64,000 nt of DNA from Planctomycetota bacterium (GTDB lineage: Bacteria; Planctomycetota; UBA11346), in the NCBI GenBank assembly GCA_038231435.1, contig JBBRLJ010000002.1:64001-128000 (forward strand), read 5' to 3'. Position numbers: made by a program. Of this stretch, positions 18,001 to 27,000 are shown one piece after another (the first letter of the stretch is position 1; the number at the start of each line of letters is the position of its first letter).

Positions 18001-21000
18001 CGAGCACGCGACCGCGCGCTGGCACGAGCTCGACACCTACGGACATCCGTGCACCACGCATTGGGCCGGCGATTTCCGCTCTCCGCACCGTTCGATCGTG
18101 GCCCTGCCCGGCCTCGACTTCGTCTGCATCGACGCCTACCACGCGCCCGAGGGTGCGGGCGGCGGTACCCTGCTCGCCGAGCTCCTGGGCATGAGCACGG
18201 GCAGCGGTGAGGCACGACGCGGCGGCGGGCTGTCGCGCTACGGCAAGCCGGTGCTGGTGACCGAGTATGGCGGCAGCTGGGACGCCTGCTCCGGGCGTCA
18301 GATGGAGGCCGAGCACGCGAGCGGCGGATGGTCGGCGCTGGTCACCGGACACGCCGGAGCGCCGATGCTGTGGTGGTTCGAGTGGGTCGACCAGGGAAAC
18401 CGCTTCGCGCCCTATCGCGCGCTGTCGAGATTCCTCGCCGGCGAGGACAACCGCGTCCCGGCCGGCAGTTCCGTCCAGCTCTCCGCCACCGATCCGCCGC
18501 GCGAACTGTGGGCGCGCGCCTGGGCGCGGCCTGGGCGGATGCTCGGCTACGTGCTCGATCGGCGCTGGGGTGCGAGCGGCGAAGGCGACGATCCGCACGA
18601 GGGCGCGCAGGTCTCGCCATCCTCGCCGATCGCCGCCGGTCGACTGCTGCTCGAGTGGTGGAACGCCGACACCGGCGTCCGCATCCAAGCGCGGGAGATA
18701 TCTCACCCGGGCGGGCTCCTCGCGCTCGATCCGCCGCGATTCGTCCACCACATCGCGTTCAAGCTGATCCGCGTCAAGGATGGCTGAGAGAGATTGGTGC
18801 GCGGCGCGGCGTACGGCGAAGTCGCTCCACTCGCGCCGTCCTCGCCGTACGCCGCTCGTCGCACACCGCACATCCGCATAGGCCATGCGGAAGACGGCGT
18901 ATCGTGATGCCATGCATCCCCTCCTCCGCCGCGCCGTGCTGGTCTTGCGCCGCTCAATCGCTGTCTGCTGGTCGTTGTCCTGGTGGACCACGGCGGGACT
19001 GCGCGACCGACGCACGCGGCCGACCGGCATGCGCCTGCTGGTCCTCGGCCTGCTGGTCGGCGCGCTGGTCGGCTGGAGCAACGGCAAGATCATCCACGTC
19101 ATCCAGGAGAAGGAGCTGCCCAGGCCGGTGACGCCGCCTCCGGCGGGCGCCACCTGGGCGCGGGTCATGACTACCGGCTACTGTCCGTGTTGGCGTTGCT
19201 GCGGTTTGGAGGCGAACGGCCACACCTCCATCAATCGGGACGTCTCGACGCATCCCTTCGGGCTCGCCAGCGACCCGGGCATGATGCCCTACCATACCGA
19301 GCTGCAGATACCCGGTTACGGCCAGGCGGAGGTCGACGACACCGGCGGACGCATGCGACAGGATGCCCGGAAGGACCTGTTCCACCTGGATCTTCGCTTC
19401 GTGACCCATGAAGAGGCACAGCGCTGGGGGGTGCGCTGGATGTGGATCGCCGTACCCAGGGACTCCAAGGCGGCCGCCCTGGCTCCGTGACGCGCTGGAT
19501 GCTCCCCGGCCGCGGCTGGGCCAGCGCCAGCCGGGAAAAGCGCGCTGAAAATCAGCGTCCGGGGTGCTGGCCGAGGGTCCAGCCGGGACCCATAGAGCTT
19601 GACCCGAAGCTCGACGGGACTATCTTTTCACCCCTCACTATCGGTGACTCTGCCGAGCGTGGGCCGTCTGGCTCACGCTTTTTTCATCTCTGCCTTCCAT
19701 CCGGAAGCCCAGGGATCGGCCGAGACGCCCGGTTGAACCCCTCCTCACGACCTCCCCCAACGATCAAGCACCGACGAGACCCGCCATGTTCAACGGTACC
19801 CAGCTGCTGCAGCGCGTCGATCTCCTGGCCCGCGAGCGCGGCCTCGACAAGAACGTCATCCTCGACCACATCGAGAAGGCCCTCCTCCAGGCGGCGCAGA
19901 AGCGCTTCGACGCCACCGGCGATTTCACCCTGACCATCGACCGCGAGACCGGCGAGATGCGCGCGTTCGAGGACGACAAGCCCGTCGACCTCGAAGCCCT
20001 CGGCCGCATCGTCGCCAACATCGCCAAGCAGGTGTTCGTGCAGGCGCTCAAGGAATCCGAGCGCGACATGATCTACACGGAGTTCGCGACCCGTGAGCAC
20101 ACCGTGACGTCCGGCACCGTGATGCGCGAGGAGCGCGGCATGATCATCGTCTCGCTCGGCCGCACCGAGGCGATCCTGCCCCGCGAGGAGCAGATCCCCG
20201 GCGAGGTCTACCGCCCCGGTTCCGTCGTTCGCGCCTACGTGCTCTCGGTCGGCAAGAAGGGCCAGCGCGTGCGCATCGTGCTCTCGCGCACCCACAGCAA
20301 CTTCGTCAAGGAGCTGTTCAAGGCCGAGATCCCCGAGATCGCCGACGGCCTGATCGAGATCAAGGGCATCGTGCGCGAGCCCGGCCGCCGCACCAAGATC
20401 GCCGTCGCCACCACCGATCCGCGCATCGACCCGGTCGGTTCGTGCGTCGGCATGCGCGGCAGCCGCATCACCAAGGTCACCGACGAGCTCGGCGGCGAGA
20501 AGATCGACATCATCCCGTGGGCCGAGGATCCGGCGCAGTTCATCGAGAACTCGCTCAAGCCCGCGCGCGTGCTGCGCATCAGCTACGATCACTTCCGCGA
20601 TCGCGCGCGCGTGGTCGTCAGCCAGGACCAGCTCCCGCTCGCGATCGGCAAGGCCGGCCAGAACGTGCGCCTCTCGGCGCGCCTGACCCGCTACAAGATC
20701 GACGTCATGTCGGAAGAGAACGCCGCCAAGGCGCGCCAGGCGGGCAGCGAGCAGCTCCAGCAGCTGATCGACGCCGGCCTGATGAATGACTTCCTGCGCG
20801 AGACCTTCCTCGACAACCACCTCGATTCGCTGGCCGCACTCGCGGCGCAGACGCCGGAACGCATCGTCGAAGCCCTCGAGGAGCACAAGATCGAGCTCGA
20901 CCAAGCCAAGAAGCTGGTCGAACGCGCGAACGAGCTGCTCACCGACGAGCAGAAGGCCGAGCGCGACATGATCGTCGAGCGCCGTCAGCAGGTCGAGCGC

Positions 21001-24000: not shown

Positions 24001-27000
24001 TGCACACCGGCAAGGTCGGCTCGCTGCGCCGCTTCAAGGAAGACGTCAAGGAAGTGAAGCAGGACTTCGAATGCGGCCTGACGATCGAAGCCTTCCAGGA
24101 CGTGAAGGTCGGCGACGTGATGGAATTCTTCACCCGCGAGAAGGTCGCCCGGAAGCTGTAACAATCGTGCGGTGTGCGGTGTGCGGGAAAGACTCGAAGC
24201 CCACGCTGCACCCCCGCAAGCCGCTCCCCCACTTCCTCTGTGCGCGAGACGCCTCCATGCCCGATAAAAAAGGCGCCAGCCGCCAGGCTCGCCTCGCTTC
24301 ACTGCTCCACCGCGAGATCGCGACCTGCGTGCAGCAGGAGCTGCGCGATCCGCGGCTAGGCTTCATCACCGTGATCCGCGTCGAGGTGAGCGCCGACCTG
24401 CACCAGGTGAAGGCGTTCTACACCGTGCTCGGGGACCTCGCGCAGCGCAAGCTGGCCGCCAAGGCGCTCGAGCAGGCGCGCGGCTTCGTGCAGAATAGCT
24501 ATGCCGGGGTGGTGAAGACCCGCTTGCTGCCGACGCTATCGTTCGCGTACGACGACGCCGAGGAGCGCCGCCACAGCATGGACGACCTGATCCGCCAGGC
24601 GCGATCCACCGATACCGATGGCGGCAGCACTCCGACACCGCCCTCGCCGGACGCCACCAAGGCCACCGGGCCGGATCCGATCGCGCCCTAAGCTACGTCA
24701 GCTACGTCGCCTCGGCGATTTTATCCGATCCCAGCTGATCGGCGACCGAGAGTCGAGACCGCACGGCGCGACGCTTTTCCTGGCTTCGGCTGGGTTACGC
24801 TGCAGGCCATGGAGGTTCCCATGCGTTGGATCCGCCCGCTCTCGTTCGCATCCGCCGTACTCGCGACCGCCGTCACGGCCGGCTGCGGCGTCAAGGACGA
24901 CATCGATCTCACCTTCAATCGCGGGCTGCGCTCGGAGCCAGAGCCGCCTACGAATCTGGTGCCGCTGACCCTGAGCTTCGATGTGGTCAACGATTCGACG
25001 GTAGCCGTCGACAACGTCGAATGGGTGATCAACCGCGACGGCGCGCTGTTCCGCAGCGGATCCTTCGCGCACATCCGCAGGGCGGATTACGACTTCGACT
25101 CGGTCTCATTCACCGAGACAGCTGGCGACCACGTTTATGAACTGGTCATCGATCCCGCGAACAGGATCCGCGAGCGCGACGAGGACGACAACGCCTCGGT
25201 GATCAAGGTGACGGTACCGCCCGGCGGAACGGGGTAATGAAGAGCGTCCGACATCCGTGGTCCGTCGCCGACTGCGGACAGCTACCGCATAGGCGCGGTG
25301 GAGTAGACCCGTCGGTTGTCGACGACGGACGACGGACCATACGACTCGCGCGCATTTCTGGCCTTCCCCCGTCTGCCCGGTAGCGTGCCGCCATGTCGAT
25401 GACCGCCGTGATCGGAACCGGCAGCTGGGGCACTGCCGCCGCGGTGATGACGGCGCGCGGCGGTGGCTCGGTGGTTCTGTACGGCCGCGATCCGGCCAAG
25501 GTCGCCGCCATTGCCACATCGCGCCGGCACGAGCACCTGGGCGACACCGAGCTACCGGCCGGGATCCTGGTGACCTCTGATGCCGCCAGGCTGTCCGACG
25601 CCGATCTCGTGCTGTGGGCGGTGCCGACCCAATACACCCGGGCACTGGCGCGGACCCTCGCGCCCAGCCTGCGCGGCGACGCCAAGGTGGTGTCGCTGAG
25701 CAAGGGTGTCGAGCAAGGCACCCTGGCGCGCGTCACCGAGGTGTTGGCCGCCGAGCTCGGGCAGCGGGCCTATGGCTGCCTGTCCGGGCCCAGCCACGCG
25801 CTGGAAGCCGTGTCCGGACTGCCGCTGTGCCTGGTGGTCGCTGGACCGTCCGCGCTCTGCGCAGAGACCCAGCGCCGTCTGCATGCCCCGCGCTGCCGAC
25901 TCTACACCTCCGCCGATCTGCTCGGCGTCGAGCTTGGCGGAGCCCTGAAGAATGTGGTCGCCGTCGCCGCCGGCATCTGCGAGGGCCTCGGATTCGGCGA
26001 CAACACCAAGGCGGCGATGATCACGCGCGGTCTCGCCGAGATGCGCCGCCTCGGCCGGGCGATGGGCGCGAACGACGTGACCTTCGCCGGCATGGCCGGC
26101 GTCGGCGATCTCATGACGACGTGCTACAGCCGGCATGGGCGCAACCGCGCGCTCGGCTTGGCGATCGCGCGTGGCGAAAATCCCCTGGAAATATTGAAAC
26201 GATTGCACACTGTAGCCGAAGGCGCCTGGACCAGCCGTTCCGCGGTCGAGCTCGGGCGCCGACACCATGTGGAGCTGCCCATCGCTTCACAGGTGGCATC
26301 CGTGATCTGGGATGCTAAACCTGTGCCCTTCGCGATGGAGCAGCTCCTCGCACGCGCACCCAAGGAAGAAGACGCATGAACATTCAGGCCACCGGTTTCC
26401 GACTGACCTACCTCGCTTCGCTCGCGCTCGTCGCGGGTGTCGCCAGCCATGCCGGCGCCGCGGTCTCCAGCATCGACCCCGAGCAGCAGCGCGTTCCCGA
26501 CGACCTCGTGCTCAAGGCGGAATTCCTGAGCAAGCTGGTCGACCAGGGCCGCATCCGCAACGACGACGCCACCGCGCACGTCGGCGGCGTCGCTCGCATC
26601 GGCTGGGAGGTCCCCGGATCGAAGCAGGGCATCGGCGTCCAGGTCGACGGTTACTTCGCGGTCGGCGAGGACCAGGCCACCACTCCCAAGACCAGCCCCG
26701 GCGAGATGGTCGAATTCAACGGCAAGCTCTCGTACGTGTACGAGGCCCTGGACGCGGGCGACATCCCGATGTTCCAGATCATCCCCCACTTCGAGTTCAT
26801 CACGTATCCCAACGTCGCCGAGCGTCAGAACTATCTCAAGTACCGGCAGAACTATGTCGGCGCCGACGCGTGGTACTGCCTGCCTTGGGAAGGCATCGAG
26901 ATCGGCGGCGGCGCCGATTGGAACATGAGCAGCCAAGCGCACATGTTCCGCGCTGCCGCTGGCGCGCGCGAGTTCTACCAAGATGCGCCGTTCGACCTCT

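Follow-up and report, generated by a model that had tools for sequence, protein, structure and literature searches.

Absence of genes for the known tRNA pseudouridine-55 synthases, TruB and Pus10, from a planctomycete genome and most of its class

The genome of the Planctomycetota bacterium analysed here encodes neither of the two known tRNA pseudouridine-55 (psi55) synthases, TruB and Pus10, and the same is true of most genomes of its class. No replacement synthase tracks this state, and we infer, with a probability of about 0.6, that U55 of its tRNAs is most likely unmodified. In the section of a review cited here, psi55 is described as the most universally conserved tRNA modification (PMC7912444). 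The window, i.e. the whole 64,000-nucleotide stretch of DNA that was analysed, contains the nusA-infB-rbfA locus of this genome (Table 1).

Table 1. Features of the nusA-infB-rbfA region (positions in the window)
Feature	Product	Position	Strand	Evidence
nusA	NusA, 446 aa	19786..21126	+	Pfam NusA_N 1.1e-13, S1 1.4e-05, KH_5 1.9e-30
infB	IF-2, 984 aa	21207..24161	+	Pfam IF2_N, GTP_EFTU 1.4e-32, EF-G_D2, IF-2 3.5e-32
rbfA	RbfA, 144 aa	24257..24691	+	Pfam RBFA 4.1e-25; open frame from 24071
Terminator-like hairpin with T-rich tail		24705..24727	+	Consensus scan: 1 site versus 0.4 expected in shuffles
CARDB gene	Small CARDB protein, lipoprotein-like signal (VTAGC)	24809..25237	+	Pfam CARDB 3.4e-05, 24.4 bits (cut-off 22.7)
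gpsA	NAD(P)-dependent glycerol-3-phosphate dehydrogenase	25393..26379	+	Pfam NAD_Gly3P_dh_N 6.6e-34, NAD_Gly3P_dh_C 1.5e-50

TruB in the genome, the class and the phylum

The initial annotation had stated that neither truB nor any TruB-like frame exists anywhere in the 5.2-Mb genome, and two profile searches bear this out. PF01509 (TruB_N) gave no match at E ≤ 10 in the assembly (5,198,390 bases in 108 contigs), the controls being positive in 14 of 14 cases. A phylum-specific HMM derived from 12 Planctomycetota TruBs was searched with --max against all 65,991 six-frame open reading frames of at least 40 aa; its best E value was 8.4, i.e. noise. The catalytic-Asp motif H-x-G-T-L-D-P is present in all 12 of these TruBs; a loose regular expression for it found eight short chance matches in the genome, none of which lies in a frame scored by the TruB HMM. 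The completeness of the assembly is 87.64%, and the absence in this single genome therefore rests on its relatives.

Five of the 48 genomes of the class carry TruB according to the profile search, which in its multi-genome form scores only candidates that pass a loose first filter, so that a very divergent gene could escape (the --max searches cover the window genome). This count reproduces the one on which the loss had been described as common to most of the class. The 43 genomes without TruB range in completeness from 61 to 96% and include all three of the genus to which the window genome belongs and all three of genus g2; in two relatives that are 94–96% complete (G010 and G076), no TruB match was obtained at E ≤ 10. 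Most of the class probably lost TruB during its ancestry. In a TruB tree of 35 rows, drawn up as a test of vertical descent as against transfer, the TruBs of the five class members cluster in a single clade (support 87); the deeper branches of this tree are weakly supported and partly at odds with the InfB tree.

In the phylum as a whole, TruB is found in 201 of the 382 genomes with a completeness of at least 90%. The wide absence noted earlier thus stands, at about half of the genomes, and the share given then, from a smaller sample, is replaced by this one. Across the phylum, the absence follows family lines consistently. In family f26, both TruB and Pus10 are missing from all 30 genomes, and these include two closed, single-contig genomes that are 100% complete (G026 and G237). 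The absence of TruB is a lineage trait, not an assembly gap. On an InfB tree of 91 genomes, for which residues 400–984 of the window IF-2 served as the marker region, the distribution of TruB requires 17 independent changes; without 16 single-genome absences, the number falls to 11. The view that TruB was lost repeatedly in this phylum is supported to this extent, but many of the apparent losses are probably replacements by Pus10 (70 of the 193 genomes without TruB). The TruBs of family f85 are divergent, with PF01509 E values of 1e-14 to 1e-21, yet they score 134–155 bits with the phylum HMM.

The truB gene serves as a universal marker for bacteria, e.g. in the bac120 set. Completeness scores based on such markers may undercount these lineages.

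Gene order at the nusA-infB-rbfA locus and at the truB locus of a relative

The genes nusA, infB, rbfA, the CARDB gene and gpsA lie on one strand in sequence free of gaps and Ns (19786–26379), the NusA, IF-2 and RbfA domains follow one another in cluster order, and all Pfam matches are above their cut-offs. The description of this locus as an unbroken nusA-infB-rbfA cluster with a CARDB lipoprotein gene and gpsA after it is therefore accurate, as judged from Pfam and from reading of the sequence; the latter is also the source of the lipobox-like VTAGC motif and of the likely rbfA start (ATG at 24257). The terminator-like hairpin just 3' of rbfA (hairpin proper 24705–24717) is a weak sign that the nusA-infB-rbfA transcription unit likely ends there. 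The E. coli-type operon has the order rimP-nusA-infB-rbfA-truB-rpsO-pnp. The window shares with it the adjacency and order of nusA, infB and rbfA, but truB does not directly follow rbfA, and the CARDB gene fills the slot that truB has in E. coli. No RimP-like frame was recognised 5' of nusA in the window.

The end of this operon without truB had been taken as a sign of gene loss, a use that the comparison with other Planctomycetota does not sustain. No truB frame is present at any of the 90 Planctomycetota infB loci examined (at 83 of which the sequence extends 1200 bases or more 3' of infB), and 38 of these genomes have TruB elsewhere; an rbfA-like frame was seen at 73 of the 90 loci. The operon argument is void because truB adjoins infB-rbfA in none of the 38 TruB-bearing genomes. 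The unit would end after rbfA in the same way throughout the phylum.

In G039, a TruB-bearing genome of the same family as the window genome, truB is flanked by an aminotransferase IV gene on one side and an MBL-fold gene on the other. Orthologues of these two neighbours are present in the window genome (C44:6273-7169 and C4:100999-101802), both internal to their contigs and with other neighbours. They are on different contigs. In five further relatives that lack TruB, the 1.5 kb around the aminotransferase gene contains neither truB nor the MBL gene. A search for a former truB site revealed no clean deletion scar. These positions bear on whether truB or pus10 could simply reside in the roughly 12% of the genome that is unassembled. 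Such a gap is conceivable for an incomplete assembly divided among so many contigs, and the truB of G039 belongs to no conserved cluster that, if intact elsewhere, would confirm the absence of the gene; but the contig-internal position of both flanking orthologues, together with the 43 TruB-less genomes among 48 and the lack of Pus10 from all 48, makes this explanation very unlikely indeed.

Pus10 in Planctomycetota without TruB

In the parts of two reviews cited here, Pus10 is presented as the archaeal tRNA psi54/psi55 synthase, which acts in Archaea in the stead of TruB, and as not found in Bacteria (PMC7912444, PMC12710931). The Planctomycetota data contradict this statement of absence. As in Archaea, family members occur where TruB does not: of 401 Planctomycetota genomes, 71 encode a Pus10 that scores above the TIGR01213 cut-off; 70 of these have no TruB, and the remaining one (G252) has both. 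The 193 TruB-less genomes thus comprise 70 with a Pus10-family gene and 123 with neither enzyme. The Pus10_C domain (PF21238) was detected at 200–225 bits (cut-off 27) in all four of the planctomycete proteins scanned, and a match to human PUS10 (2V9K) was obtained at 1.5e-40. Six aligned planctomycete proteins (L216–L221) all retain the invariant columns G-R-x-D-x-D-x-R, G-R-P-F and Y-x-K-E, and combine the Pus10_C domain, the zinc-ribbon cysteines, the catalytic stretch and likeness to a solved Pus10 that characterize the family. Even short forms consisting of the catalytic domain only still score approximately 250 bits. Judged from these sequence features, the bacterial proteins are predicted enzymes, which sets them apart from archaeal Pus10, and in the lineages of the 70 genomes the function of TruB was probably replaced, not lost. 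Pus10 was also seen in records labelled Bipolaricaulota and Thermotogae.

The association between the two genes was examined by independent pairs. Ten contrasts were obtained, of which about three were opposite, none the same and about seven without difference (sign-test median p of 0.25); the direction is as expected, and the replicates are too few for significance. A Fisher p of 9e-25 over the 401 genomes ignores kinship and is not valid as a test.

The window genome and its class differ from Archaea in having no Pus10. TIGR01213 gave no match at E ≤ 10 in the window genome, an HMM built from six planctomycete Pus10 proteins (--max, six frames) reached a best E value of 0.28, which is noise, and a motif scan with the stretch G-R-E-D-V-D-x-R-x-L-G-x-G-R-P-F returned one chance match. 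None of the 48 genomes of the class has Pus10 above the cut-off. The class would not have acquired Pus10, whereas about a third of the Planctomycetota that lack TruB did. Weak Pus10 matches in family f85 were considered as a new enzyme and rejected, since they sit on the divergent TruB of that family.

The presence of Pus10 in place of TruB in 70 genomes suggests that selection keeps psi55 in this phylum and makes it more probable that the modification persists, by unrecognised means, where both enzymes are missing. One way in which they could do so is through a psi55 synthase invisible to the TruB and Pus10 profiles, either an extremely divergent member or an undescribed family. Genomes with neither enzyme (123 of 401) are a large group for so conserved a modification, and profiles cannot find a family that was never modelled; the divergent f85 TruBs and the short Pus10 forms were nevertheless detected, and the --max six-frame searches of the window genome yielded noise only. 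We consider such an enzyme quite improbable.

Other pseudouridine synthases and the T-loop

Ten pseudouridine synthases outside TruB and Pus10 are encoded in the window genome; the extra ones all score below the NCBIfam equivalog cut-offs. In the class, a second TruA-like and a second TruD gene occur, both divergent and both with the catalytic Asp retained. The initial annotation had noted that these pairs do not track the loss of TruB, and this was confirmed: two TruA-like and two TruD genes are present in TruB-less G010 and TruB-bearing G039 alike. All four RluA-type genes of the window genome, and one of its two RsuA-type genes, group with an orthologue each in G039; the second RsuA-type gene (L018) falls in the same clade. 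Among twelve further genomes lacking both enzymes, each has a single TruA and zero to two TruD, and five of the twelve have only one to four RluA/RsuA-type genes. Minimal sets are seen in G041 (two RluA/RsuA-type, one TruA and one TruD) and G023 (three, one and none, respectively). A PF00849 tree of 62 rows contains no clade special to genomes with neither enzyme, and no extra RluA, RsuA, TruA or TruD paralogue tracks that state among the genomes compared.

These gene sets bear on a further explanation, namely that psi55 comes from a resident synthase outside the two families, with gained or ancestral T-loop specificity. Candidates are the second TruA-like gene (C60:6888-7667), the second TruD-like gene (C4:120313-121416) and the RluA-type genes on contigs C23, C6 and C69. 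The number of synthases, with the extra ones below equivalog cut-offs, leaves room for such an activity; sister lineages in which Pus10 has taken the place of TruB suggest that psi55 is worth keeping, and G252, with both genes, shows that redundancy can precede loss. All candidate paralogues are also present in G039, however, which has TruB, and no shared extra synthase gene appears among the genomes with neither enzyme compared, of which G041 and G023 have minimal sets. We know of no RluA-, RsuA-, TruA- or TruD-family enzyme reported to make psi55. A resident synthase of this kind is rather unlikely. For the neither-enzyme Planctomycetota together (123 of 401 genomes), a third solution for psi55, be it a re-targeted TruA-, TruD- or RluA-type enzyme or a new family, is possible, though we would not expect it; if it exists, there would be three non-orthologous psi55 synthases in one phylum.

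Life with neither enzyme and with an unmodified U55, which remains the reading that we favour, has partial parallels. In the part of the work of Grosjean et al. (2014, PMC4014445) cited here, TruB is naturally missing in three hemoplasmas, Mycoplasma genitalium and M. pneumoniae. Like the present organism, these Mollicutes are bacteria that have no TruB gene and keep the tRNA T-loop, but they are parasites with genomes of <1 Mb that have shed many modification genes, whereas Planctomycetota genomes measure 2–10 Mb and the absence affects whole families and a class, with about half of the sampled phylum lacking TruB. E. coli without truB or trmA is reported, in the portion cited, to be viable, to be outcompeted by the wild type and to show lower aminoacylation (10.1101/2023.11.11.566336 / PMC11214086). 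The survival of cells without T-arm modification enzymes shows the state proposed here to be viable, but the E. coli strains are outcompeted laboratory mutants, whereas the state is fixed in natural lineages of Planctomycetota. By analogy with these mutants and with the TruB-less Mollicutes, loss of the psi55 enzyme is tolerable. Free-living, large-genome Planctomycetota exist in three states (TruB, Pus10 instead, or neither) and therefore form a natural experiment on whether cells outside the laboratory can do without psi55 and without the chaperone role of TruB, on what compensates for their loss and on whether a third psi55 enzyme exists.

The T-loop sequence G-T-T-C-R-A is present in 46 of the 56 tRNAs predicted by ARAGORN in the window genome; the other 10 predictions have odd lengths, are GC-rich and look spurious. 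The earlier observation that U55 and this T-loop are kept in the tRNA genes consequently holds for all 46 credible genes. Their retention speaks against an unmodified U55, although tertiary folding needs these bases anyway. U54 is probably unmodified as well, since the genome has no TrmA-family or TrmFO gene, and the T-loop would be a plain UUC loop. PF05958 (TrmA family) gave no match at E ≤ 0.01 in the window genome, and TrmFO (TIGR00137) gave a single match at 46.5 bits against a cut-off of 428.65, which was rejected as TrmFO and is MnmG (GIDA at 511 bits plus the MnmG C-terminal domains). A coupled loss of the T54 and psi55 enzymes at the level of the phylum was likewise rejected from the PF05958 counts per family: the domain is found in all 33 genomes of TruB-less family f5, in 9 of the 40 genomes of TruB-bearing family f4 and, as weak matches, in 4 of the 30 genomes of family f26.

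Absence of truB and organization of the nusA-infB-rbfA locus

No match to the TruB_N model (PF01509) was obtained at E ≤ 10 in the whole assembly (5,198,390 bases, 108 contigs), and the same search was positive in 14 of 14 control genomes. A second HMM, constructed independently from 12 Planctomycetota TruB proteins and run without speed filters on the 65,991 six-frame open frames of at least 40 aa in this genome, returned only noise (best E, 8.4), and eight short chance matches to the catalytic motif turned up in a permissive scan, none of them within a TruB-like frame. Both models bear out the initial annotation, which had reported no TruB-like frame in the assembly. 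Because the assembly is 87.64% complete, absence is not provable from this single genome, and its relatives decide the matter. The class comprises a single family, f1, represented by 48 species genomes; profile searches of the genome set, which score just the candidates passing a loose first look, detected TruB in five of them, from 4 of 18 genera, reproducing the earlier count, and the remaining 43 genomes are 61–96% complete. In two TruB-less members of the family, G010 and G076, TruB was not found even at E ≤ 10. The truB gene is almost certainly missing from the organism (probability of about 0.95).

The gene order described previously, i.e. nusA, infB, rbfA, a CARDB-domain gene, and gpsA, is present in the window, and the interval from infB to gpsA is unbroken. 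No RimP-like frame was recognised 5' of nusA (18885–19933).

Features of the nusA-infB-rbfA locus (window positions) and resident pseudouridine synthases other than TruB and Pus10 (contig:positions)
Feature	Position	Strand	Basis or remark
Frame upstream of nusA	18885-19490		Sole match, sub-threshold 3D-domain
Frame upstream of nusA	18983-19411		No Pfam match
Frame upstream of nusA	19442-19933		No Pfam match
NusA	19786-21126	+	Pfam
IF-2 (infB)	21207-24161	+	Pfam
RbfA	Frame end 24691; ATG 24257 most likely start	+	Pfam; start from sequence
Terminator-like hairpin with T-rich tail, 3' of rbfA	24705-24717		1 site vs 0.4 expected in shuffles
Small CARDB-domain protein, lipoprotein-like N-terminal signal	24809-25237	+	Pfam; signal from sequence
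GpsA	25393-26379	+	Pfam
RluA-type (four genes)			One RluD-like, over subfamily cut-off
RsuA-type (two genes)			
TruA-like (two genes)	C60:6888-7667, C13:80505-81266		One barely at TruA cut-off, one divergent
TruD-like, short (two genes)	C31:40258-41445, C4:120313-121416		

In the Escherichia coli operon, truB lies 3' of rbfA. We collected infB loci with up to 1.5 kb per flank for 90 Planctomycetota genomes representing 53 families; at least 1200 bases 3' of infB were available in 83 of the 90 loci (37 of 38 from TruB-bearing genomes), and an RbfA-like frame was present in 73 (31 of 38). No TruB frame was found near infB in any of the 90 loci, the 38 TruB-bearing genomes included. Across the phylum, truB is uncoupled from infB-rbfA, and a missing truB after rbfA is therefore uninformative on loss; the end of the operon without truB, previously taken as a sign of the loss, fails as such. 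Only one TruB-bearing genome of the family, G039, is well assembled; its truB is located on a 1.56-Mb contig and is flanked by genes for an aminotransferase IV and an MBL-fold protein. The orthologues of these two flanking genes are internal to contigs C44 and C4 of the present genome and have different neighbours.

Distribution of TruB and Pus10 in Planctomycetota

TIGR00431 is a member of the bac120 marker set. TruB was detected in 208 of the 401 sampled Planctomycetota genomes, kin among which are not independent, and in 201 of the 382 good ones. It is present throughout families f4 (40/40), f2 (9/9), and f18 (7/7) and absent throughout f5 (0/33), f26 (0/30), and f17 (0/4); even a threshold of E ≤ 10 recovered no TruB from two single-contig, 100% complete f26 genomes (G026 and G237). 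The TruBs of family f85 (L222-L225) match Pfam TruB_N weakly (E, 1e-14 to 1e-21); their match to the phylum HMM is broken into two or three pieces, as if part of the interior had been altered or deleted. No report of TruB absence in Planctomycetota was found in the literature outside subscription journals and supplements.

The TruB state was mapped onto a maximum-likelihood InfB tree of 91 genomes (quick search, LG+G4; 47 of 88 inner branches starred). It changes at least 17 times there, compared with a mean of 29.2 and a minimum of 23 for shuffled labels, and 11 times on the 75 rows left after removal of 16 Pus10-less rows, each the sole TruB-less genome of its family in the sample. All trees in this study are single-gene quick searches; since the InfB tree also has no outgroup and weak deep branches, these counts are rough and alone cannot separate gain from loss. 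We infer loss because TruB is positive in all controls and every major part of the tree contains it. The repeated loss proposed for the phylum agrees with the number of changes, but in many TruB-less lineages it is probably to be read as replacement by Pus10, the archaeal and eukaryotic psi54/55 synthase.

Pus10 exceeded the curated TIGR01213 cut-off (200 bits) in 71 of 401 genomes, including all members of f5 (33/33), f17 (4/4), and f28 (2/2) and none of f4 (0/40) or f2 (0/9). TruB only, Pus10 only, both, and neither were recorded in 207, 70, 1, and 123 genomes, respectively, a raw table inflated by kinship; among 10 contrasts on independent, well-supported InfB-tree paths, Pus10 was opposite to TruB in about 3, the same in 0, and without difference in about 7 (median p, 0.25). 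The Pus10_C domain scored 200–225 bits in the four planctomycete proteins scanned (4/4), catalytic columns are invariant in 6 of 6 (L216-L221, from G034, G079, G008, G011, G002, and G017), and L219 matches human PUS10 (2V9K) across the catalytic domain (1.5e-40). The genes lie on large chromosomal contigs, including those of the single-contig genomes G121 and G252, and share a contig with infB in G002, which makes contamination from archaea unlikely. The predicted enzyme probably stands in for TruB in many Planctomycetota lineages. Two forms occur, a long one with a THUMP/zinc-ribbon part and a short one of approximately 275–300 aa, e.g. in f5 and f35, with the catalytic domain only. The sole genome with both enzymes, G252 (single contig, 9.2 Mb; C1:8436291-8436716 and C1:7363467-7364333), may be a snapshot of a redundant stage preceding the loss of one of them.

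Passages of two reviews describe Pus10 as absent from Bacteria (PMC7912444, PMC12710931), and our literature search found no passage linking it to Planctomycetes, the two terms co-occurring in a single paper, in unrelated passages. Scanning genome contigs with the Pus10 alignment gave at least 600 stretches, at least 584 of them confirmed; the best 80 (L303-L382) are mostly archaeal and include 3 from Planctomycetota, 7 from Bipolaricaulota, and 2 from 'Thermotogae' MAG records. In an unrooted tree of these 80 and the six planctomycete proteins, a sample biased to the query, all nine planctomycete rows belong to one clade (support, 97) adjoining Thermoplasmata sequences, and a second clade (support, 100), amid Methanomicrobia-like sequences, unites those of Bipolaricaulota and Thermotogae. 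This placement would fit two separate transfers of Pus10 from Archaea. Two archaea-titled records within the planctomycete clade (L303 and L328) may be mis-binned or represent transfers.

Resident synthases and the predicted state of U54 and U55

Neither enzyme was detected in most of the window's class: TIGR01213 gave no match in the window's genome and none over cut-off in the 48 class genomes (0/48; two noise matches, E, 0.01–0.08), and across the six frames of this genome the lowest E given by a planctomycete-Pus10 HMM was 0.28. Ten other pseudouridine synthases are encoded there. In the class, one member of each TruA-like and TruD-like pair is divergent and keeps the catalytic Asp; 12 other genomes without TruB and Pus10 have a single TruA each. 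The pairs are the same in TruB-less G010 and TruB-bearing G039, which bears out the previous statement that these paralogues do not track the loss. In a tree of PF00849 (RluA/RsuA-type synthases), all four RluA-type genes of this genome and one of its RsuA-type genes each group with genes of both G010 and G039 (support, 99–100). A further PF00849 tree, of 62 rows, has no clade peculiar to genomes with neither enzyme. Matches to PF00849/TruA/TruD, which are not strict copy numbers (N- and C-terminal pieces in one frame were merged), were 6/2/2 in this genome, 5/2/2 in G010, 4/1/1 in G012, G009, and G026, 3/1/0 in G023, 4/1/0 in G074, 2/1/1 in G041, and 1/1/0 in G040 (neither enzyme); 7/2/2 in G039, 5/1/1 in G058 and G033, 3/1/1 in G001, and 5/1/2 in G035 (TruB); and 8/2/2 in G004 and 3/1/0 in G011 (Pus10). 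By these comparisons, none of the 10 resident synthases tracks TruB loss. One RluA-type protein (L016, C69:11125-12267) carries an acidic, Asp/Glu-rich insertion of approximately 60 residues within its catalytic domain, by which its Pfam and NCBIfam match is cut in two. A TruD match in G061 (L231, C54:13913-15067) contains one in-frame TGA, which could stem from pseudogenization, sequencing error, or recoding.

The best-supported reading is a lineage-wide, real loss of TruB in the class, in which Pus10 would not have been taken up and no dedicated paralogue gained, leaving tRNA U55 unmodified. The absence of psi55 itself is a prediction that we favour with some reserve. The main doubt is that the sample shows replacement of TruB by Pus10 on about three or more independent occasions, which argues that psi55 is worth keeping, so that lineages with neither enzyme may have a third route to it; against such a route through a resident synthase, none of these tracks the loss, nor is any PF00849 clade peculiar to these genomes. 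For loss of TruB there is a precedent in five Mollicutes, according to a passage in PMC4014445, and another report (10.1101/2023.11.11.566336) describes E. coli deletion strains for truB and trmA as viable but less fit.

In this genome, U54 would also be unmodified. The TrmA/RlmD family of m5U methyltransferases (PF05958) gave 0 matches at E ≤ 0.01, TrmFO was not found (the sole TrmFO-like match is MnmG), and the genome seems to lack an enzyme for m5U54 or for rRNA m5U sites; a weak match was noted at C39:4303-4569 (L125). Present in 33/33 genomes of f5, 9/40 of f4, and 4/30 of f26, the methyltransferase family does not follow TruB phylum-wide, which makes the two losses separate events. In keeping with what was reported earlier, the T-loop G53-T-T-C-R-A58 is retained; 46 of 56 ARAGORN tRNA predictions carry it, and the remaining 10 appear spurious. 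Several of the predicted genes end in CCA (e.g. C1:6568-6645, C1:162505-162578, and C1:194427-194502), and the tRNA 3' CCA looks genome-encoded.
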